64,000 nt of DNA from Candidatus Latescibacterota bacterium (GTDB lineage: Bacteria; Latescibacterota; UBA2968). The stretch spans positions 4,800,001 to 4,864,000 of the forward strand of contig OZ244960.1 in NCBI GenBank assembly GCA_965222605.1. The letters run 5' to 3'. How positions within the stretch are numbered: position 1 is the stretch's first letter; each line of letters opens with the position of its first letter. The notes beneath the pieces were generated by a model that did not search any database, was not told the origin of the DNA, and saw nothing but the letters and a program-made list of their open reading frames with translations. Positions 2,872 to 51,389 of this stretch are shown piece after piece. The position numbers and the translations under genes were made by a program.

Positions 2872-3256
2872 TGGTGGAGGCGGCGGGAATCGAACCCGCG
2901 TCCGAAAGCAGTTTAACAACGGCATCTACGTGTGTAGTCTATTCACTTAGAATCTCACATCTCGCGCCCCAACAGACAGGGTCGCTGAGATGCCAGCTCG
3001 ATGGTTGGGGCTGTGGCCCGCTCTCATCCGGAGGCCCTCGAGCGGAAACCCCCGCACCAGCCTGCTCTCGTCGGCGCTCTGCCCAGACCACGCAGGCAAG
3101 GTCTGAGAGAACGGACTGCGTAACGGTTAGTTAGGCAGCCATTGCGTACGTGTTATCGTCCGCAGTTGCGTTTTTTCCCAATTGTTTTACGAGGTGATTG
3201 GGCACCTCGACACGCAGCCATCATCTCTCCACCCCCGTCGAAGCCATGTCGCCCCC
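2872..3256 (-). ncRNA. ssrA: tmRNA (transfer-messenger RNA), tag peptide ADDNTYAMAA
   Basis: 5' GGGGGCGACATGGCTTCGAC and 3' GCGGGTTCGATTCCCGCCGCCTCCACCA tRNA-like ends; internal ORF GCG GAC GAT AAC ACG TAC GCA ATG GCT GCC TAA at 3163-3131. Confidence 0.97.
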
Positions 3257-16624: not shown

Positions 16625-16703
16625 TGGCGGGGTAGACGGGACTCGAACCCGCGACCACCGGCGTGACAGGCCGGTACTCTAACCAGAACTGAGCTACTAC
16701 CCC
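16625..16703 (-). tRNA. tRNA-Asp (GTC)
   Basis: GGGGTAG acceptor stem, CCGGC-CTGTCAC-GCCGG anticodon arm, TTCGA T-loop, encoded CCA. Confidence 0.96.
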
Positions 16704-24445: not shown

Positions 24446-27400
24446 TCAGGCTCTTTTTGCCACGGCCACAACCCGCTTTGCATATCCCGACATGTCGTCC
24501 ATGAGCGAGTATATAGTGGGCAAGATGACCAGCGTGAGAATGGTCGAGATCGAGAGGCCAGAAATAATCACCAGGCCAATTGGTCCCCAACGTCTGGCAT
24601 TGCCTTCGGCATTGCCGTAAAACATCGGAATAACCAGCGGTGTAAGCCCCAGGATGGTCGTGGTTGCGGTCATTAAAATGGGGCGCAGACGATCTTGTCC
24701 GCCGCGCAAGATCGCATCTCTTCGATATAATCCCTGCTTGCGATAGCGATTGATGTGGTCGATTAATACAATGCCGTTGTTGACCACAATGCCAAACAAA
24801 ATGAGCAACCCATAAGTCGCATTGCTGTCCAGCGCAATGCCGAATGTGTAAAGTCCCAATGCGACACCTATAAATGCAAAACTGATGGAAAACATGATCG
24901 TAAAGGGATGGATATAAGATTCAAATAGCGAAGCCATGATCAGATAAATGAGCAGGGCGGCAAATAACATGGTGAAATTCGTTTCGCCCTCTTCTGAAGA
25001 CATATAGCGGAAGCGGCGATCCATCTGCCAGCTATACCCTTTGGGCAATGGGATGGCATCCATGCGGTCGCGCATTTCATAACCGACCGTTTGGACCTCC
25101 GATGCTTCCGTATTTGCAAACACGGTTACGGTTGCCATCCGATCCTGACGCTCGATGGATCGGGGGCCTTTGGTCAATTCAAAATCGGCCAGGCTGGCAA
25201 ATGAAATCATATTGCCCCGGTTGTTTTCAAAAGAGAGGGTCTTGAGTTGGTCCAGCGTAGCGCGGTCTTCTTCTCGCAATTGCAGCGCAATGTCGATTTC
25301 TCCATCCGGCGTTTTGAATTTGCTGTTTCCACGAGAACCCAATGCCGTGGCAACAGTTGTGGCTATTTGCTGCGGTGAAAGGCCGTATTGTTGCGCGCGG
25401 TCTCTCCTCACCGATACCCTGATTTCTTCTGTGCCACTTTCCAGGCTGGTTTCCACGTCGTGAATGCCTTCAATATCGTTCATTCGCAGCCGAATATCTT
25501 CAGCCAGGATCGCCAGCACTTCGGGATTTCGTCCTTTGATTTCTACCCCGACGCCCGTGCCACTGCTACCACCACGCCTGAAGCCCGCCTTAAAACGCAC
25601 GCCCGGGATATCTTTGGGCAGCAAAGCACTTACCCTTTTTTTTACGTCGTCTGTGCTCAACGGGCTTTCTTCGACGGATTTTAGGTACAAATAAATCGTA
25701 TTGCCGCGTCGGGTACTAAATCGCGTTTTTATCGCTTCGATATCCAGTTCTTCCTTTTGCGGGAGGAGAATGGCTTCAATCTGTTTGTACAGCGCGAGTG
25801 CGTCGTCGATATCGTAAGTTCGCGGCATTTCCACCATATAGCCCACCATGCGGTTGGGTTGATAGCGATAGCGCTGTACTTCAATTTTGGTAAAGATGTA
25901 TATGCCGCCAAATAGGATAAATGTAGCGGCGATAACGGTGGTCCAGCGATAGTGTAACGTGGTGCTAATTATGCGCGTGTAAACACCTTTGAGACCAAGA
26001 TGCCGAAACCGAAAATAGAGATAGCCAGTTGTGGCGATAAACACGCCCAGCGCGATCCACGCGCCTATTGGCACGGTTGAAAACCCGCCCAAAATCCACA
26101 GGGTATTATCTTTGAGCCAGTTGGCCGATTCGCCAACGCCTTTCCGGTAAATGAGATACGCTGCGCCCGCGGCAAATAAAGTGCCCAATCCGATTTTCAA
26201 AAAGAGATCGACGCGGGTACCCGCATTTGAAAATGCCCGAGAGCAGGCCAGCGGGATGAGTGTTAAAGCCACGCATAGTGCCGCTACCACTGCAATGCAT
26301 ACGGTAATGGCAAAATCGCGCATCCACATTGTATTGTAAGAACCCGAAATAAAGATGAGGGGTACAAATACACATATTGTCGTCAGTGCAGCGGCCAGCA
26401 CTGGTACTCCGATTTCGCGGCTGCCCTCAATCGCCGCGGTTCGAGTGCCATCGCCTTCGTCAAAGCGTCTGCGATAAATATTTTCCAGGGCCACGACCGC
26501 CGGATCGACCAGCATCCCAATGGCGACCATCAGCCCCATCATCGAGATCATGTTCAGCGTGATATTCGATCCAAAAACTTGCCGCATCAGGTACATGATC
26601 ATAAAAACGCACAATACGGAAATGGGAATGGCCGACCCCACAATGAGCGTACTGCGGAAATTTCGCAAAAAGACAAAAATGATGCCAATAGCCAGCATAC
26701 CTCCCAAAATAGCGGATTGCCCCAGGCTGGCGATGCCCCTTACCACTGCTTCTGACTGGTCTCGACGCAAGTGCAATCGCAATTTGTCGCGTCCAATTTC
26801 ATCTTGAAGAGCCTTTAACTCTGCACGGACCAGGCGGCAGGTTTCTACCAGATTGGCTGTCGAGGCTTTGCGAATTTCCATAGAGACTACATCGCGTCCG
26901 TCCAGGCGTTCAAAATATCGCTTTTCTGGATAGTCGTAACTCACCTGCGCTACGTCTTCCATATCCAGACCATTGGGAAGTGTGAGATCGCGAATTTGAT
27001 CTACATCTTCAAATTCGCCCACGGACCGAACCGCGAGGCGTTTGCCGCCCTCTGTGACATATCCGCCGGAAATATTGATGTTGTTGGACCGAATCGTTCT
27101 GTTGAGGGTGCGGATATCTAAGCCATAGGCGTGCATGCGATTTTTATCGACATCGACTCTGAGTATTCTTTCATCGGCGCCTTCCATTTCGACATTGCCT
27201 ACCCCGGGGATGCGTAGCAAGCGCGGCAAGATTGTGTTTTTATACACCGTGACGAGTTCCGATTGATTATCGCCCAGCCAGATCATATTGTAGTCCAGAA
27301 TTTCCCAGTCCGAAGAATCCCATCTGCGCATCTCAATGCGTTCGAGGTCTTCGGGAAGTCTGCCGCGAACTTGATCTATGCGATCCCGCACCTGAATAGA

Positions 27401-27712
27401 TTTGAGATCCATATCGGTACCGTAGTCAAATTCCATGAACACATAACCCCGACTGTCATAAGATCGCGCGCGGAGTGATTCTACGCCGGGGACCGTGCCC
27501 AGTATCTCTTCGATTGGCTTGGTAATTTTCTTTTGGATCTCTTCGGGCGATGACGAGGGATATGAATAGCTCACATACATTCTGGGATACTGCAAATCGG
27601 GCGCGTATTCGAGGGGCAATCTGAATAGGGAAATGAATCCCATGACCACGAGACTCAGTGCTGCCATCACAGTGGTAATGGGGTTTTTAATCGCATATTC
27701 TGAGATTTTCAT
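24446..27712 (-). CDS. RND efflux permease (AcrB/AcrD/AcrF family)
   Basis: 1088 aa; GMLVDPAVVALENI, LTTICVFVP, GIVVNNGIVLID, RLRPILMT. Confidence 0.93.
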   Translation of the reverse strand: MKISEYAIKNPITTVMAALSLVVMGFISLFRLPLEYAPDLQYPRMYVSYSYPSSSPEEIQKKITKPIEEILGTVPGVESLRARSYDSRGYVFMEFDYGTDMDLKSIQVRDRIDQVRGRLPEDLERIEMRRWDSSDWEILDYNMIWLGDNQSELVTVYKNTILPRLLRIPGVGNVEMEGADERILRVDVDKNRMHAYGLDIRTLNRTIRSNNINISGGYVTEGGKRLAVRSVGEFEDVDQIRDLTLPNGLDMEDVAQVSYDYPEKRYFERLDGRDVVSMEIRKASTANLVETCRLVRAELKALQDEIGRDKLRLHLRRDQSEAVVRGIASLGQSAILGGMLAIGIIFVFLRNFRSTLIVGSAIPISVLCVFMIMYLMRQVFGSNITLNMISMMGLMVAIGMLVDPAVVALENIYRRRFDEGDGTRTAAIEGSREIGVPVLAAALTTICVFVPLIFISGSYNTMWMRDFAITVCIAVVAALCVALTLIPLACSRAFSNAGTRVDLFLKIGLGTLFAAGAAYLIYRKGVGESANWLKDNTLWILGGFSTVPIGAWIALGVFIATTGYLYFRFRHLGLKGVYTRIISTTLHYRWTTVIAATFILFGGIYIFTKIEVQRYRYQPNRMVGYMVEMPRTYDIDDALALYKQIEAILLPQKEELDIEAIKTRFSTRRGNTIYLYLKSVEESPLSTDDVKKRVSALLPKDIPGVRFKAGFRRGGSSGTGVGVEIKGRNPEVLAILAEDIRLRMNDIEGIHDVETSLESGTEEIRVSVRRDRAQQYGLSPQQIATTVATALGSRGNSKFKTPDGEIDIALQLREEDRATLDQLKTLSFENNRGNMISFASLADFELTKGPRSIERQDRMATVTVFANTEASEVQTVGYEMRDRMDAIPLPKGYSWQMDRRFRYMSSEEGETNFTMLFAALLIYLIMASLFESYIHPFTIMFSISFAFIGVALGLYTFGIALDSNATYGLLILFGIVVNNGIVLIDHINRYRKQGLYRRDAILRGGQDRLRPILMTATTTILGLTPLVIPMFYGNAEGNARRWGPIGLVIISGLSISTILTLVILPTIYSLMDDMSGYAKRVVAVAKRA

Positions 27713-27962
27713 AAACGGACCTCATTAAGGCAAAAGTTGAATTAGAAGCTCAGTCTGCATCCGTCAGAAACGGAGATTCGCTAAGTAACCATTTACTTAC
27801 TTACGTTTAATATACCACATTCTGCCACAAAATCAACCACAGTTTTGAATAAAAAATTTCACCGTTACAGAAAAGACTTGCAAATTTGCTTCAATGATAT
27901 TTCATACTAATGTTTGGAAAATAATCGCACAACTATATTTCACTTTCAATGAGGAGACTCCA

Positions 27963-28844
27963 ATGGGCAATCGCGTCAATCGCGCAGTTGAGTTGCTTTC
28001 ACAAGATCAACCGATCTATTACACGGGCGCACACACAGGGCATGTGCTGACGTTTGAACAAGGGCAGAATGACGCCAGTACCTGGGCGGATTATATCAAT
28101 GTGGGTATGGAACACGGGGCTTTTAATCTGGGGGGGCTTGACGACTATATGCGCGGCCTGGTCAGCGGAGGACCTACAAATAGTGGGCACAAGACACCCG
28201 CTGTTATTGTTGAAGCCCCTGTGGAGGGCGCGTCTGAAAATATTGTGCGCTACAATGCCTGGCAGTTTCGGCAGATTCTCGCACGCGGTGTTCATGGCAT
28301 TTTGGTCTGTCAGGCGGAATCACCCGATGCGATACGCGCTTTTGTCGAGTCGTGTCGCTATCCCATCAGTAAAGCGGGCGTTGGGCGCGGCCTGGGTACA
28401 GGTACGCGAGGCGTGGGGTCCGAATCGTCGGCGGCAGCGATATGGGGTGTTAGCCGCGATGAGTACATCCAGAAGGCCGATCCCTATCCACTGAATCCCG
28501 ATGGCGAACTGCTTCTGGGCATCAAGATTGAGAATGTGCGCGGCGCATCCAATATCGAACAGATTCTCAAGGTGCCCGGCATTGGGTTTGCCGAAATGGG
28601 GCCGGGCGATTTGAGTATGTCGATGGGGTATTTGCACCGTCCAACGCCTTTTCCACCCGAAATGCAAGAGGTGAGGGATCGCGTGAAAGCCGCGTGTGCA
28701 GAAAATGGCGTTGCTTTTCTCGAGGGGGGTAGTCCCGAGACGGTTGCCGCTAAAATCGACGAGGGTGTGCGTGTGGTTTCCGGTGGCAGGGAGGAGATCG
28801 CGCGTATTGGACGCGAATATTCAGGCCGTCGCATGCCGGTTTAA
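27963..28844 (+). CDS. HpcH/HpaI aldolase/citrate lyase family protein
   Basis: MEHG, KIE, GPGDLSMSMG; GAGGAG RBS. Confidence 0.8.
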   Translation: MGNRVNRAVELLSQDQPIYYTGAHTGHVLTFEQGQNDASTWADYINVGMEHGAFNLGGLDDYMRGLVSGGPTNSGHKTPAVIVEAPVEGASENIVRYNAWQFRQILARGVHGILVCQAESPDAIRAFVESCRYPISKAGVGRGLGTGTRGVGSESSAAAIWGVSRDEYIQKADPYPLNPDGELLLGIKIENVRGASNIEQILKVPGIGFAEMGPGDLSMSMGYLHRPTPFPPEMQEVRDRVKAACAENGVAFLEGGSPETVAAKIDEGVRVVSGGREEIARIGREYSGRRMPV

Positions 28845-28857
28845 TCGCGCAAAAAAA

Positions 28858-28885
28858 TAGGGCTGTGCGATGTTTGCATAGCCCT
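28858..28885. terminator. Hairpin between convergent genes
   Basis: AGGGCTGTGCG-ATGTT-TGCATAGCCCT flanked by A-runs. Confidence 0.6.
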
Positions 28886-28907
28886 GAAAATTCGATTTAA
28901 TACGCGC

Positions 28908-29387
28908 TTAAAATGGATTGCCCTGTCGCGCCAGCTCAAATTTTCGCCAGCCTACTTGTTTGTCATTTTCGAATACTTTTTCCACCGCGTAAAAGGAGGA
29001 TGGGTCGTATTCTCGCCAGACGCCCGTTTTTTTATTCTCCAGGTATAGACCTTCTTCTTTTTTTACACCGCTTCTAAAATAGGAGGCCCAATACCCGTCT
29101 TTTTTTTCGTTTGTCCAATTGCTTTCTATTTTTTTCTGTCCGTTGATGTAAAATGTGATTTCAAGCCCGTCTTGCATGACGCCATTTTGGTATGTGCCTT
29201 GCCCGCGTACGTTGCCGATGGCATCGTAATATGTCCAAACCCCAGTGCGGGCACCGCTGTCGTATTGCCCTTCCGCCACTACGCGGCCGTATTGTTTTAT
29301 TTGCGTCTGTCCTTCAAATAGCGAGGGCATTTGGCACCCGGCTGTGAGGATTCCCGCGATAAGAATTGCAATAGCGCGTTTGATCAT
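28908..29387 (-). CDS. MORN-variant repeat lipoprotein (YwqK-like)
   Basis: Lipobox LTAGC; repeats G.WTYY..G....G.Y.NG. Confidence 0.75.
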   Translation of the reverse strand: MIKRAIAILIAGILTAGCQMPSLFEGQTQIKQYGRVVAEGQYDSGARTGVWTYYDAIGNVRGQGTYQNGVMQDGLEITFYINGQKKIESNWTNEKKDGYWASYFRSGVKKEEGLYLENKKTGVWREYDPSSFYAVEKVFENDKQVGWRKFELARQGNPF

Positions 29388-29539
29388 TTATTTTCTCCTG
29401 TTATGAGAGCGCTCAGTCGCCAACTGTCTTTTGGCGGATATTCTACTGTAATAGAACTAATATACAAAACTGTTTTCATAAGGCAAAGATGAAATGGAAA
29501 ATGACTCATTTAATACTTGTACGTGTGCATAAATTGGAC

Positions 29540-29600
29540 CTCAACTACAAAGCGATTGTACTCAACGACCCCTTTATTGTCGCAACCATCCTCTCATCGT
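29540..29600 (+). promoter_or_regulatory. Three tandem imperfect repeats, putative operator array
   Basis: CTCAAC..ATTGT (29540), CTCAAC..ATTGT (29561), CGCAAC..ATCGT (29581); period 20-21 bp; 43 bp upstream of the XRE gene. Confidence 0.4.
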
Positions 29601-29643
29601 ATTTTAATAAACGATTCGCCCCTCGTGCGGTAAAGAGTCCTAT

Positions 29644-30369
29644 ATGTTACTCACCGAACTCGGCCAACGCCTTCGCGCTCAACGGGAACGCCTTGGCCTC
29701 AAGCAAAACGACGTTGCTAATGCCCTGCAGGTAAGCCCACAGGCCGTTTCCAAATGGGAAAGAGGTGAAAACGGCCCCGACATTGCCACTTTGGGACCTC
29801 TTGCCAGATTGCTCGGTGTTTCTACGGATTGGCTCTTGGGAGCACATGGCGAAAATCAAGATGTTTTTGATGCTACTATCTTCACCTCCACAGTTGTCGG
29901 TGCATACCAAAAATCATTACAAATGGAGGCGAGGGAGTTTGCAGCGTGGGCAAATGGCATTTTGTTTCAATTGACCGAAGCTGTTTTGCGCCACGATGGC
30001 GTTCCGCTCAGATATATGGGAGACGCATTTTTGTGTTTTTTTTCTGGCGTTCACCATCAGCTTCGCGCCGCCCAGGCAGCGGCATTTTCCCAGCGGCTTA
30101 TCGGCGAAGACCTGGTTATTGGCTTGAGCAGCGGTGAGATTTATTTGGGCGCAATGGGGCATCCCGATTACGCCCATCCCGATGTGACAGGAGAAGTGGT
30201 CAATATCGCATTTATTGTTCGAGAATGGGCAGAAACAAATATCCGCAAGGGAATTGCAGCAACGACGTCTGTGTCGAACAATCTCGATGAAATTTTTGAT
30301 ATTTCCCAACCCACAGAAATTAATTTTCGCGGCATCAAAACGCCCATCTCAATTTGCCAGATCAGATAG
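29644..30369 (+). CDS. XRE-family HTH fused to a degenerate class III nucleotidyl-cyclase domain
   Basis: LKQNDVANALQVSPQAVSKWERG HTH; cyclase-like RYMGDAFLCFF, IGLSSGE, GEVVNIA. Confidence 0.85.
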   Translation: MLLTELGQRLRAQRERLGLKQNDVANALQVSPQAVSKWERGENGPDIATLGPLARLLGVSTDWLLGAHGENQDVFDATIFTSTVVGAYQKSLQMEAREFAAWANGILFQLTEAVLRHDGVPLRYMGDAFLCFFSGVHHQLRAAQAAAFSQRLIGEDLVIGLSSGEIYLGAMGHPDYAHPDVTGEVVNIAFIVREWAETNIRKGIAATTSVSNNLDEIFDISQPTEINFRGIKTPISICQIR

Positions 30370-30417
30370 GGATATACCTGCCGCGTTTGTCAACAGTCAA
30401 TAGAGAGAGGATGAAAT

Positions 30418-31869
30418 ATGGCCGATATAGTGTTGCCCGATAGCGCGACTGATATTCAAATTCCCGATTATTCGCATTTGCCTCATAAAGTCGCCGATAT
30501 GTCTCAGGCAGATTTTGGACGGAAAGAGATCACAATTGCCGAGCGCGAGATGCCCGGGTTGATGGCTGTGCGGGAAAAATACGCAGACCAGAAACCTCTG
30601 AAGGGTGCCCGTATAACGGGGTCTCTTCACATGACGATTCAGACAGCTGTGTTGATCGAGTCGCTCAAGGTGCTGGGAGCCGATGTGCGCTGGGCATCGT
30701 GTAATATTTTTTCAACGCAAGACCACGCCGCTGCTGCGATTGCACAAACGAGTACGCCGGTCTATGCGTGGAAGGGCGAGTCGCTGGAAGAATATTGGGA
30801 ATGCACTTTGCAGGCACTCAATTTTGTGGAGGGTGGACCGACACTTATTGTCGATGATGGAGGCGATGCGACATTGCTAATTCACCGGGGGTATCAGGCC
30901 GAAGACGATCCTTCGATTCTCGATGAGCCGACCGATAATCGCGAATTGGAGATTGTCAATGCGGTACTCAAGCGGCAACTCGAACGCAATCCGCGTTTTT
31001 GGCACAATATGGCCGCCGATATTCAGGGTGTGTCAGAAGAGACCACAACGGGTGTTCACCGCCTGTATCAGATGCGGGATGACGGTACGCTTCTCTTTCC
31101 CGCGATCAATGTCAATGATTCGGTGACCAAATCGAAATTCGATAATCTCTATGGCTGCCGCGAGTCGCTCGCCGATGGTATTAAACGCGCGACTGATGTT
31201 ATGGTCGCAGGGAAGGTTGTTTGCGTGTGCGGTTACGGCGATGTGGGCAAGGGATGTGCCCAGTCTATGCGGGGATTTGGTGCGCGCGTGTTGGTGACGG
31301 AAATCGATCCGATATGTGCCTTGCAGGCGGCGATGGAGGGATTTGAAGTGACGACTGTGGAAGATGCCCTTTTCGAAGCCAATATTTTTGTTACGACGAC
31401 GGGCAATACGGATATTATCCGCATTGAGCACATGGAAAATATGCTCGATCAAGCCATTGTGTGCAATATCGGGCATTTCGACAATGAAATTCAGGTTGAT
31501 AAGCTGGTTGATTACCCGAGCATTGTGCACGAAAATATCAAGCCGCAGGTCGATAAATACACGTTTCCAGATGGGCGTGCCATCTTTTTGCTCGCCGAAG
31601 GCCGTCTGGTCAATCTCGGCTGTGCAACCGGGCATCCTTCTTTTGTGATGTCCAATTCGTTTACCAATCAGGTGTTGGCGCAAATGGATCTGTGGGCTCA
31701 GCAGCGCGAAATTGGCGTTTATACGTTGCCCAAACACCTCGACGAGGAGGTTGCGCGTCTTCATCTTGAAAAACTCGGTGTGAAGTTGACCGAACTCACG
31801 CAGAAGCAGGCCGATTATATTGGCGTGTCCACCGAAGGTCCGTATAAGTCCGATCATTACCGGTATTAA
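30418..31869 (+). CDS. ahcY: S-adenosylhomocysteine hydrolase
   Basis: [51 protein letters not shown]. Confidence 0.98.
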
Positions 31870-31875
31870 CGATTA

Positions 31876-31912
31876 GGGACTGGGAGCTTATCCCCCAGTC
31901 CCCAACCTTTTT
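31876..31912 (+). terminator. Intrinsic-terminator-like hairpin between ahcY and metF
   Basis: GGGACTGGG-N9-CCCAGTCCC followed by AACCTTTTTT. Confidence 0.6.
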
Positions 31913-31913
31913 T

Positions 31914-32792
31914 ATGCGATTTTTAGACTATTTTACCGGCAATCAACCAGTCATTTCCTTTGAGATTTATCCGCCGCAGACGCAGGGTGGCATGCGCGCG
32001 CTCAAAGCGCGGATTGTTCCCAATTTGCTCAAGCTAAATCCCAGTTATATGACGGTTACGTATGGTGCAGGTGGCTCTACCCGCGCCAAGACGCTGGAGA
32101 TTGCTTCGCTTATCCAGAATGAATTTGGTCTGACTGCGGCGTGTCATCTCACCTGTGTAGGATCGTCCCGAACAGATATCGATGATATTTTGAAGGCGAT
32201 TCGCGGGGAAGGCATTCGCAATATTGTCGCGCTTCGCGGCGATCCCCCTCGCGGAGAAGATACTTTTGTTCCCGCAAGAGATGGATTTGCATACGGCAAT
32301 GAGCTTGTGGCGCATATTCGCGGTACGGAACCCAAAGGCGATGGATTTGGATTGGCTGTTGCGGGTTATCCCGAAAAACACCTCGAAGCGCCCGATTTCG
32401 ATACGGATATTGCAAGTCTTAAGCGCAAGGTCGAGTCCGGTGGGGATATTGTTATTACACAGCTTTTTTACAATAACGATTACTTTTTCCGCTTTGTTGA
32501 TCGCGTGCGCGCAGCCAATGTCACAGCACCTATTGTTCCGGGTCTGATGCCGATTCTTTCGGCGGGGCAGATCCAGCGCATCGCATCTTTGTGCGGGTCT
32601 GAGATTCCCAGGGATTTGCAGGATCAACTCAATGGCGCTGTTGATGATGAAGACAAGGCGATGAAAATCGGTATTGATCAGTGCATCGCGCAGGCAACCG
32701 AATTGCTCGAACAGGGCGTGCCGGGTATTCACTTTTACGTGCTCAACAAATCGACTCACATGCGCCAGATTATTAAGGCGCTTCCTCTCTAA
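31914..32792 (+). CDS. metF: 5,10-methylenetetrahydrofolate reductase
   Basis: SFEIYPP, VTYGAGG, HLTC, ALRGDPP, AGYPEKH, ITQLF, HFYVLN. Confidence 0.96.
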   Translation: MRFLDYFTGNQPVISFEIYPPQTQGGMRALKARIVPNLLKLNPSYMTVTYGAGGSTRAKTLEIASLIQNEFGLTAACHLTCVGSSRTDIDDILKAIRGEGIRNIVALRGDPPRGEDTFVPARDGFAYGNELVAHIRGTEPKGDGFGLAVAGYPEKHLEAPDFDTDIASLKRKVESGGDIVITQLFYNNDYFFRFVDRVRAANVTAPIVPGLMPILSAGQIQRIASLCGSEIPRDLQDQLNGAVDDEDKAMKIGIDQCIAQATELLEQGVPGIHFYVLNKSTHMRQIIKALPL

Positions 32793-33390
32793 GTGGAAAT
32801 TTTTCAGTGATCAGCATGATTGGCTTTTTATTGGCAAATACCCTGTAGGTGCGGCAGAGAAGAGGTTCTCCTTCAAGGTGCGCGATGGCCTCTGGCAAAT
32901 TTCGTGCGGTTTCACAGCAGCACCACAATAATTCACGGCGGGTTTCCAATCCGCTGTTTTGCAGAATTCCTCCCAATCCCGCAGGATCTGATTCCAATCC
33001 GTCTAAAATGCCTTTTGGCAAGTGTTGTGGCACAATGAGAGATGTAGCATATGCCTGAATTTTCGGCATGTGGTTACCTGTTGGGGGCGTTTGTAGTACC
33101 ACTTGTCGCGCGATGACGTGTGTTCCTACCGGCAGTTCAAGCCAGACCTGCTCGGTGCATAGTGTCTGTTTCGCCTGGTGGAGGAGCACGACTTCCACCG
33201 GTGCGAGTGCATAGGCTTCAATGAGCCTTGTGACGGTGCCGTCAGTGACGATCAATGCCCGCTGAAATGGCGTTAACTGCGCGATGTTTATTTCTCTCGA
33301 TGTTGTCGGTCTTTCTGCCTGTGCGACAAATATATTTTTTACGCGATTGTCAACAAAGTTTGTCGAATTGAAAATTGGGTCTGTCTTCAT
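32773..33390 (-). CDS. Chorismate pyruvate-lyase family protein (DUF98/UbiC-like)
   Basis: TDGTVTRLIEAY, ARQVVL, LETRRE, RTYRV, PIMLITEKFP. Confidence 0.75.
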   Translation of the reverse strand: MKTDPIFNSTNFVDNRVKNIFVAQAERPTTSREINIAQLTPFQRALIVTDGTVTRLIEAYALAPVEVVLLHQAKQTLCTEQVWLELPVGTHVIARQVVLQTPPTGNHMPKIQAYATSLIVPQHLPKGILDGLESDPAGLGGILQNSGLETRRELLWCCCETARNLPEAIAHLEGEPLLCRTYRVFANKKPIMLITEKFPLREEAP

Positions 33391-33537
33391 CAAGCCTCGT
33401 CCTTCCGTATATACAGCTATTGCGTAACGTAAGTGAGCTTTAGACACATAAGTAGAAAAAAAGTTCTTTGAAACATTGCATATGAGATTTTAATCAGTTA
33501 TTTTGAGTTGGAAACTGACTTTGACGGAAAGAGCGCG

Positions 33538-34302
33538 ATGCGTATTGTAACGTGGAATGTAAACGGGTTGCGGGCGGCACTTCGCAAGGGGTTTGTCGAT
33601 CACATTAAAATACTAAACCCCGATGTGATCCTTTTGCAAGAAATTCGGGTCTTGCCCGAGCAACTGCCCGAAAGCGAGCGCAATCCCGATGGATGGCATG
33701 TTATCTGGCATCCGGCCGAGCGCAAGGGCTATGCGGGTACAGCGGTATGGTCTCGCACGCCTTTAAGAGAGGAAGAACGCGGCGCGGGGGAGGGCGATTT
33801 TGAAGGTCGGATTTTGCGGGTGAGCACTCGAGGTATTCAATTTGTCAGTGTGTACCTGCCTTCGGGGTCATCGGGCGACGAGCGCCAGGCGATCAAGGAG
33901 TGCTGGATGGATCGCTTTCGCGTTTGGGCGGACTGCCTGGTCAAAAAACAGATTCCCACAATTATGGGCGGTGATTTTAATATCGCGCATACCGAACGCG
34001 ATATTTTTTATGCTAGGAGCAACAAAAAGAATTCGGGTTTTTTGCCCCATGAACGCGCGTGGATGGGCGATCTCATCGCATCGGGCTGGCGCGATTTTAC
34101 ACGGGAACACTACGGCGATATTCAGGGACCATATTCGTGGTGGTCCAACCGGGGAAGAGCCAGAGAATTGGACCGTGGCTGGCGTATCGACTATTTGTTG
34201 GGTAATGCGGCAGCCGCAAAACGCGTTCAGTCTGCCTATGTTGACCGCAAAGGCGGCTTGACCATATCTGACCACGCACCGGTTGTTGTCGATTTGAAAT
34301 AG
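33538..34302 (+). CDS. xth: Exodeoxyribonuclease III / AP endonuclease
   Basis: WNVNG, LQE, GDFNIAH, GWRIDY, SDHAP. Confidence 0.93.
   Translation: MRIVTWNVNGLRAALRKGFVDHIKILNPDVILLQEIRVLPEQLPESERNPDGWHVIWHPAERKGYAGTAVWSRTPLREEERGAGEGDFEGRILRVSTRGIQFVSVYLPSGSSGDERQAIKECWMDRFRVWADCLVKKQIPTIMGGDFNIAHTERDIFYARSNKKNSGFLPHERAWMGDLIASGWRDFTREHYGDIQGPYSWWSNRGRARELDRGWRIDYLLGNAAAAKRVQSAYVDRKGGLTISDHAPVVVDLK

Positions 34303-51313: not shown

Positions 51314-51389
<76 letters not shown>

Follow-up and report, generated by a model that had tools for sequence, protein, structure and literature searches.

What controls the ahcY-metF operon of a Candidatus Latescibacterota bacterium, and what does the protein encoded at the head of this operon do? 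The operon lies in a window of 64,000 nucleotides, the whole stretch of DNA that was analysed (contig OZ244960.1 of assembly GCA_965222605.1, positions 4,800,001 to 4,864,000), and consists of three co-directional genes with spacers of 48 and 44 bp: a regulator gene, ahcY for S-adenosylhomocysteine (SAH) hydrolase, and metF for methylenetetrahydrofolate reductase (Table 1). A preliminary description, made from the sequence alone, had placed a 241-residue protein with an XRE-type helix-turn-helix (HTH) and a class III cyclase fold directly upstream of ahcY, with metF following, and the gene layout and the Pfam and NCBIfam matches agree with it. The regulator gene and ahcY are presumed to be co-transcribed. 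We propose, with a probability of about 0.6, that this protein is a one-component transcription factor that acts on its own expression and on the SAH/methyl cycle, with a dimer of pseudo-cyclase domains as the sensor of an adenosyl ligand. Computation established the domains of the protein, its degenerate catalytic set and adenine-specifying pair, a predicted dimer, a conserved operator-promoter, and the conserved linkage of the family to the genes for SAH hydrolase and for homocysteine- and adenosine-consuming enzymes.

The N-terminal part of the regulator matches HTH_3 (PF01381) over the whole profile (positions 1-55 of 55) with an E-value of 3.7e-16 and 59.3 bits against a cut-off of 23, and the recognition helix of this XRE/Cro-C1-type HTH is nearly invariant in the family. 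The C-terminal cyclase homology domain (CHD) is matched weakly by PF00211 when the single sequence is used (E 0.011; 15.8 bits, below the cut-off of 21.9). A profile made from 19 C-terminal domains of the family matches solved class III cyclases with E-values from 3.8e-15 to 1e-7 (Cya2, 2w01, 3.8e-15; CyaB, 3r5g, 3.3e-14). The AlphaFold model of the regulator, built on 32 homologues, has a mean pLDDT of 87.6, and when it was compared with the PDB by Foldseek the top matches were all class III cyclases, namely Cya2 (2w01), CyaC (1wc1), CyaB (3r5g), and Ma1120 (4wp9), with a best E-value of 9e-11, TM on target 0.73, probability 1.00, and TM on target ranging from 0.67 to 0.87. Because the family profile, the AlphaFold model, and Foldseek agree, the assignment of this domain to the class III cyclases, already made in the preliminary description, is solid despite the weak single-sequence score.

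When the regulator was predicted as a homodimer it scored 0.90 in each of three runs versus 0.00 for the best control. Of 30 proteins solved as pairs, 20 attained this mark, as did 1 of the 23 that were solved as single chains. The three runs had at least 82% of their contacts in common and the pLDDT of the partner was at least 84. The predicted interface is made up of the CHD alone (residues 74-233, including 123, 173, 176, 180, 187, and 191). Thus, the CHD is predicted to form the usual head-to-tail dimer, and since solved CHD dimers exist, the pass may reflect likeness to them. Two SAH molecules were included in the prediction; the tool does not score ligands and the prediction therefore carries no information on SAH binding.

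Is this CHD still a cyclase? Residue positions were mapped via HMMER alignments to CyaB, Cya2, and OaPAC, and the functions given to them below are those established for class III cyclases. For the counts, the 98 regulator proteins encoded at the loci were dereplicated at 90% identity, which left 79. In the window protein the position of the first metal-binding Asp is T83, in F80-T81-S82-T83; the GDA motif is retained and provides the second metal Asp, D127; and the stretch VNIAFI retains N187 and has I191 at the position of the transition-state Arg. The same holds across the family. The first metal position is S in 37, G in 17, D in 9, T in 8, A in 3, V in 2, E in 2, and M in 1 of the 79 proteins (D or E in 11/79), and the transition-state Arg position is L in 63, I in 4, M in 3, and R in only 1. 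Therefore, the catalytic set that had looked broken in the window protein (FTST, no Arg in VNIAFI, GDA kept) is broken family-wide. With one metal Asp and the transition-state Arg lost, the CHD has probably ceased to be a cyclase and would make no cyclic nucleotide. Other positions are kept. The second metal Asp is present in 75/79 and the ribose/transition-state Asn in 74/79; the adenine-specifying Lys is K in 73, R in 3 (R123 in the window protein is at this position), and S in 3; and the adenine-specifying Asp, D180, is invariant (79/79). Just before this Asp, beside the adenine pocket, is an invariant loop specific to the family, GHPDY, in which H173 and Y176 are each found in all 79 proteins. 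Taken together, the residue pattern reads as one in which adenosine recognition was retained and triphosphate chemistry was lost.

The family is large. A word-indexed search gave 866 homologues, and the best 120 of these 866 are 240-316 residues long, with identities of 55-100% at a coverage of 92-100%. When representatives clustered at 50% identity were searched exhaustively, 49 clusters came out below E 1e-30. Going by record names, members come from Latescibacterota, Hydrogenedentota, Planctomycetota, Nitrospinota, Armatimonadota, a Polyangiaceae bin, a Treponemataceae bin, Omnitrophica, and Sumerlaeota. Their database names are generic: 'helix-turn-helix domain-containing protein', 'transcriptional regulator with XRE-family HTH domain' and, for some JGI members, 'class 3 adenylate cyclase'. 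A clear member (E of 2e-52 or lower) was found in 21 of 121 sampled genomes of the phylum, the window's own counted; six further matches near E 1e-21 in the same 121 genomes are other cyclases, in frames of 719-743 residues.

Gene context was examined in two sets of loci, 80 genome loci obtained with a full-length alignment and the best 80 of 175 metagenome relatives obtained with an alignment of the C-terminal domain (7 rows). The genome set has 22 family members and one doubtful one (L030); the other 57 are XRE genes whose similarity is confined to the HTH or that carry only a fragment, and they served as controls. Each fetch kept the best 80, so the sample is biased to closer relatives. Before dereplication, ahcY was directly downstream in 55 of the 91 family loci that have at least 400 nt downstream. 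Dereplication at 90% left 69 loci that could be judged, and in 43 of these ahcY is on the same strand no more than 700 nt downstream; within 3 kb the number is 45. Other immediate downstream genes in the 69 loci are add (2), purA (2), metE (2), and metH (1). At least one methyl-cycle or adenosine gene is within 3 kb in 51/69 family loci versus 0/57 control loci, and in the controls no such gene was found anywhere in the locus. What tracks with ahcY is the CHD. The preliminary description had named a lack of association between the homologues and methionine-cycle genes as an outcome that would speak against a methyl-cycle regulator; the association is strong.

Individual loci, read by Pfam, show how the neighbours vary. 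The regulator gene is followed by metH in a Planctomycetota locus (L015), by metE (L138), by adenosine deaminase, add (L007), by adenylosuccinate synthetase, purA (L114, L141), by ahcY and then a NupC-type nucleoside transporter (L011), or by a PLP-dependent enzyme (L017). In L159 the order is metH, regulator, metE, metF; in L142 a homocysteine S-methyltransferase gene is two genes downstream; and in L117 and L123 ahcY is divergent. The purA, adenosine deaminase, and NupC-type neighbours tie the family to adenosine disposal besides the methyl cycle.

A motif search by expectation-maximisation (EM) without a prior, in which the 200-nt upstream regions of 75 dereplicated family genes were used, converged on TCAACnAnnnCGTCATTG, the family consensus of what we call the proximal unit. 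Re-alignment of 45 sites with their flanks gave position-specific counts and the promoter register. A second unit, TCAAC-N5-CGTnA, lies exactly 21 bp upstream of the proximal unit in the aligned sites, so that the main family has tandem TCAAC-N5-CGTCA units 21 bp apart. The proximal unit ends in an invariant TTG (T and G in 45/45 loci) that is the start of the -35, and after exactly 17 nt there is a TAnnnT (T in 34, A in 34, and T in 35 of the 45 loci). The motif reaches at least 15 bits in 48 of the 75 upstream regions and in none in each of 20 dinucleotide shuffles, and the regular expression CAAC.{5}CGT.A occurs 2.8 times per kb upstream versus 0.032 per kb in the rest of the loci. The motif is found in 33 of 39 ahcY-adjacent loci versus 9 of 27 non-adjacent ones. 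With a two-part matrix the window site scores 32.1 bits, the best in the 6.3-Mb genome; the next, at 24.3 bits, is inside an open reading frame (ORF). The promoter appears to be of the sigma-70 type with its -35 overlapping the proximal unit, as the register across loci suggests. A generic promoter scanner made no call here because it requires 9 of 12 positions to match and this promoter matches 8. Transcription would begin some 30 nt upstream of the ATG. Counted on the logo from this putative start, the midpoints of the two units fall near -41 and -62, and the -10 and the start site are uncovered.

Other site models were considered. A clean palindrome, TCAAC-N5-GTTGA, was rejected as the general model; it is seen in CHD-less relatives and in a number of divergent members, and the main family has the CGTCA form. 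The idea of a further operator in the gap between the regulator gene and ahcY was rejected because the best score was 10.3 bits in the 21 loci with gaps of at least 100 nt. By eye, L133 and L134 have a CAAC-N5-GTTGA palindrome and L145 a two-part-like site between these genes, sited there rather than upstream of the regulator gene. Generic XRE loci could not be used as a motif control, as they had been picked by the same recognition-helix peptides, the recognition helix is common to them, and 4/49 have similar sites; they are a fair control for gene context only. Six Firmicutes loci (L028, L034, L067, L075, L078, L079) have the recognition helix S.Q.VSKWERGE and C-terminal parts unrelated to the CHD, several of them TPR-like by eye, and some Firmicutes XRE loci have TCAAC-N5-GTTGA palindromes together with a proximal ...GTTATTG site fused to the -35. 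The TCAAC/-35 design may be the ancestral autoregulatory promoter of a wider HTH subfamily.

Table 1. Features of the regulator-ahcY-metF locus and RNA genes of the window (positions in the window)
Feature	Position	Strand	Remarks
Two-part operator	29541-29579		Distal and proximal units
Distal operator unit	29541-29555	+	TCAAC-TACAA-AGCGA; TCAAC 21 bp upstream of the proximal TCAAC
Proximal operator unit	29562-29579	+	TCAACGACCCCTTTATTG; 24.0 bits; last three bases, TTG, open the -35 hexamer
Putative sigma-70-type promoter	29577-29605	+	-35 TTGTCG, 29577-29582; 17-nt spacer; -10 TATTTT, 29600-29605
Regulator gene	29644-30369	+	241 aa; HTH residues 10-64 (29671-29835), short linker, CHD about residues 74-240 (29863-30363)
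ahcY, SAH hydrolase	30418-31869	+	483 aa; 48 bp after the regulator gene; TIGR00936, 625.6 bits (cut-off 497.6); PF05221 AdoHcyase, E 7.1e-149
metF, methylenetetrahydrofolate reductase	31914-32792	+	292 aa; 44 bp after ahcY; TIGR00676, 314.6 bits (cut-off 293.7); PF02219 MTHFR, E 2.6e-89
tmRNA gene	2872-3256	-	Rfam, 190.5 bits
tRNA gene	16628-16703	-	Rfam gathering score
tRNA gene	51317-51389	-	Rfam gathering score

How would such a protein work? In the mechanism that we propose, the regulator would control its own operon, regulator-ahcY-metF. The CHD would still bind an adenosyl compound where the two subunits of the dimer meet, using the Lys/Asp pair that specifies adenine and the Asn that contacts the ribose, and the binding of the ligand would shift the way in which the two HTHs sit on the operator. 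SAH hydrolase and the enzymes that remove its products would in this way be expressed in step with the SAH load. The candidate ligand that we place first, at roughly even odds, is SAH, because the gene context matches the regulons of SahR and of the SAH riboswitches (PMC4239095) and because the phosphate- and metal-holding residues have been lost. Adenosine comes second and a good way behind.

The competing explanation that survives best keeps the same regulator and operator and changes the ligand to adenosine or some other adenine compound (SAM, AMP, ADP, ATP, or cAMP), in which case the response would be to the purine or energy state or to the adenosine that AhcY makes. The retained K/R123, D180, and N187 would recognise the adenosine moiety only, the second metal Asp that nearly all members keep could still hold a phosphate-bound metal, and some members are directly before adenosine deaminase, purA, or ahcY with a nucleoside transporter. 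However, the main partners are ahcY and the homocysteine-consuming metH, metE, and metF, which is the regulon of the known SAH sensors (PMC4239095). ATP is disfavoured by the loss of the first metal Asp and of the Arg that holds the triphosphate. The add and purA neighbours also fit an SAH signal, as the removal of adenosine pulls the AhcY reaction forward. We therefore regard another adenine ligand as unlikely, yet as the strongest competitor of SAH.

It could also be that the degenerate CHD is a ligand-free dimerisation scaffold and that the protein is a constitutive autoregulator that sets the level of ahcY-metF. Many XRE proteins dimerise mainly via their C-terminal domains, and the predicted interface is all CHD. 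Yet the pocket residues that are dispensable for dimerisation, the adenine-specifying Asp and Lys, the Asn, and the His and Tyr of GHPDY, are invariant or almost so, which points to selection on a binding site, and regulators that respond to a metabolite are typically tied in this way, across phyla, to a single metabolic step. A plain scaffold is thus improbable. A working nucleotide cyclase with a DNA-binding tether, which would make cAMP or cGMP locally or be active only as a heterodimer, is more improbable still. Such an enzyme would account for the fold, for the several catalytic positions that are retained, for the nine members with Asp at the first metal position, and for the JGI names; it is contradicted by the Arg that only one member has, by the S, G, T, or A that mostly occupies the first metal position, by a homodimer in which both sites would be without the same residues, and by the absence of a conserved partner cyclase gene nearby. 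Lastly, that an ordinary phage- or antitoxin-type XRE repressor is beside ahcY by chance is hardly credible. In its favour is a weak resemblance of the HTH to the RstR, DicA, and HipB-type NCBIfam models, far below their cut-offs, and no NCBIfam model reaches its cut-off for the regulator. Against it, no toxin or phage genes adjoin the operon, and the synteny is conserved across at least seven phylum-level names when none of the 57 controls is near methyl-cycle genes; these counts already contradict it.

As to the sign of the control in the proposed autoregulated circuit, ligand-dependent activation is somewhat favoured over repression by occlusion of the -35, which we consider possible and the less probable of the two. 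We lean to activation because both units are near -41 and -62 and none is over the -10 or the start, as with lambda cI at PRM or with class II CRP. At those promoters the HTH dimer sits on a site near -41/-42 that overlaps the -35, and another site follows some two helical turns farther upstream. By the logo arithmetic the positions here are similar.

Several observations weigh against the proposal that this family regulates the methyl cycle through an adenosyl-sensing CHD. There is no methyl-cycle or adenosine gene within 3 kb in 18 of the 69 loci, and linkage to ahcY falls with identity to the window protein, from 13/13 at 60% or more to 18/27 at 52-60%, 11/21 at 45-52%, and 1/8 below 45%. 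The window protein itself has R instead of K at the adenine-specifying position, and Asp is still at the first metal position in some members, as given above. The operator units are no clean palindromes. Moreover, TCAAC-type sites with the same promoter geometry are found upstream of CHD-less Firmicutes XRE genes that share the recognition helix (4/49 at 15 bits or more), so the operator marks the HTH subfamily and not the CHD. Of five genomes with an unlinked ahcY, one has a clear site before it, one a suggestive site, and three none. In the window's genome a second operator was not found, the upstream regions of metK and metH scoring 6.3 and -7.4 bits. Finally, five congeners have another ahcY-metF promoter and no regulator gene.

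The clear site before an unlinked ahcY (L169) is in the genome in which the regulator gene is beside metH (G002, locus L015); it lies about 50-70 nt upstream of the gene and consists of a 19.5-bit proximal unit, a distal unit of the TAAAC type, and a -10. The suggestive one, in the Hydrogenedens genome of L013, has two TCAAC 21 bp apart and a low score. For the window's genome a wider regulon was rejected because the best single-site matches are in coding sequence or near unrelated genes: one is inside a small ORF that by eye reads as P-II (GlnB-like), and others are near amylase-like, Amt, and MmeI-type genes. Since no second operator was found there, the regulon in this genome is one operon. 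Among the matrix hits in this genome (G000:C1), identical strings of 18 to 39 nt occur twice each, at 1223704/2077400, 2256558/5234169, and 557857/4051525, which suggests repeated genomic elements.

Within its own genus the regulator is present in 13 of 19 other genomes, and six have no match to it. Five of these six were examined (L173-L177, in genomes G046, G033, G023, G012, and G057) and all retain ahcY-metF. Their leader retains a conserved block that is also upstream of the regulator gene in the window (compare 29388-30417), and this is followed by a segment that is absent from the window and has a near-consensus promoter, TTGAC[T/G]-17 nt-TAACTT, with no operator. Thus, within a single genus the regulator and its operator are either both there or both missing, as one cassette, and since five congeners run ahcY-metF without it, the regulator is dispensable. 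In the closest congener (L173, AhcY 97% identical) ahcY is flanked upstream by the same HpcH and MORN genes as in the window, and the segment with the other promoter is followed by a stretch that matches the final ~40 nt of the regulator gene together with the spacer. This leftover 3' end suggests that the regulator gene was deleted there. ORFs of 179-232 residues upstream in regulator-less relatives were rejected because they have no Pfam match, and they were read as spurious frames.

Could a known regulator account for the control of this operon? The preliminary description had seen none of the usual ones at the locus, and the Rfam and Pfam scans bear this out for the window. No ArsR, MetJ, or LysR gene flanks the operon by Pfam and the ORF list. 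The only Pfam matches of the regulator are XRE-type HTH models and PF00211, with no ArsR/HTH_20 or methyltransferase model, and neither the regulator nor its neighbours match MetJ ribbon-helix-helix or LysR-type/MetR models. A riboswitch or another known RNA in the leader was rejected because no Rfam family matched in the leader and operon (28800-33600) at E of 1 or lower, and no SAH or SAM riboswitch reached its gathering score in the 64-kb window; the tmRNA and the two tRNAs are the sole Rfam matches at gathering score across it. RF00162 was not found in the window's genome. A whole-genome search for RF01057 also returned none, but it is uninformative as its control matched in no control genome.

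The new family follows the same genomic logic as SahR, an SAH-responsive regulator of the ArsR family in delta-, alpha-, and gamma-proteobacteria, and its relative SamR. According to PMC4239095, the core regulon of SahR is sahR, ahcY, metH, metF, and metK; SahR/SamR are likewise autoregulated, target ahcY, metH, and metF (and metK too in the case of SahR), and co-occur with the AhcY route; and SAH riboswitches precede ahcY-metF operons. The SAH riboswitch (RF01057) thus has the same target operon (PMC4239095) and presumably the same signal, but it is an RNA element and not a protein, and none was detected in the window. There is no homology to SahR, whose winged HTH is of the ArsR type and whose site is a 20-bp palindrome, whereas the family described here has an XRE HTH_3, a CHD, and tandem TCAAC-N5-CGTCA units at the -35. 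SahR reportedly has a methyltransferase-like effector domain and is said to be a repressor that is released by SAH; here the positions of the sites suggest activation. With the class III cyclases Cya2, CyaC, CyaB, and Ma1120 the family shares the fold (TM up to 0.87), the profile similarity, the predicted head-to-tail dimer, the adenine Lys/Asp, the Asn, and the second metal Asp, and it differs from them in being without the first metal Asp and the Arg, in having an N-terminal XRE HTH and the invariant GHPDY loop, and in a single-sequence score below the Pfam gathering score.

There are precedents for parts of this design. The forskolin site of mammalian adenylyl cyclase and the pseudo-site of soluble guanylate cyclase are catalysis-dead pockets at CHD interfaces that bind regulatory small molecules. 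Those pockets regulate the catalytic site of the same dimer, whereas here both sites would be degenerate and the output would be DNA binding. A CHD and an HTH are combined in one polypeptide in the mycobacterial Rv0386-type proteins, which are large and have an N-terminal active cyclase, NB-ARC/TPR parts, and a C-terminal LuxR HTH. The present protein has 241 residues, an N-terminal XRE HTH, and an apparently inactive CHD. In the full-text literature searched, which largely leaves out subscription journals, we found no prior description of an XRE-cyclase regulator or of another protein that regulates ahcY in response to SAH.

On the upstream side of the regulator gene, the window has at 24446-29387 an ORF of 1088 residues that by eye resembles an RND-type transporter, an HpcH/HpaI aldolase-like gene, and a gene for a MORN-repeat protein that is divergent from the regulator gene. 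On the other side, a chorismate-lyase-like gene (32773-33447) is convergent with metF and overlaps its last 20 nt.

Regulators of this family would be of the metabolite-responsive one-component type with a previously unused sensor domain. We suggest tentatively, and with less than even confidence, that a pseudo-cyclase SAH receptor joined to an XRE HTH is a third and independent solution to SAH sensing after the ArsR-type SahR and the SAH riboswitch, a ligand-dependent activator at about -41/-62 that would serve several phyla in which cultured members are few or lacking (Latescibacterota, Hydrogenedentota, Planctomycetota, Nitrospinota, Armatimonadota, and others). If the proposal is true, this would be the first transcription factor with a pseudo-cyclase effector domain, and the dead class III cyclase domain would join the sensor repertoire of one-component systems as another route from enzyme to receptor. 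Members of the family that were automatically named 'class 3 adenylate cyclase' probably make no cyclic nucleotide. A small, soluble-looking protein with a defined 39-bp operator could become a genetically encoded sensor of SAH or adenosine. For the organisms themselves, it would explain how SAH recycling is controlled in large, mostly uncultured phyla in which SahR, MetJ, and SAM/SAH riboswitches are not evident.

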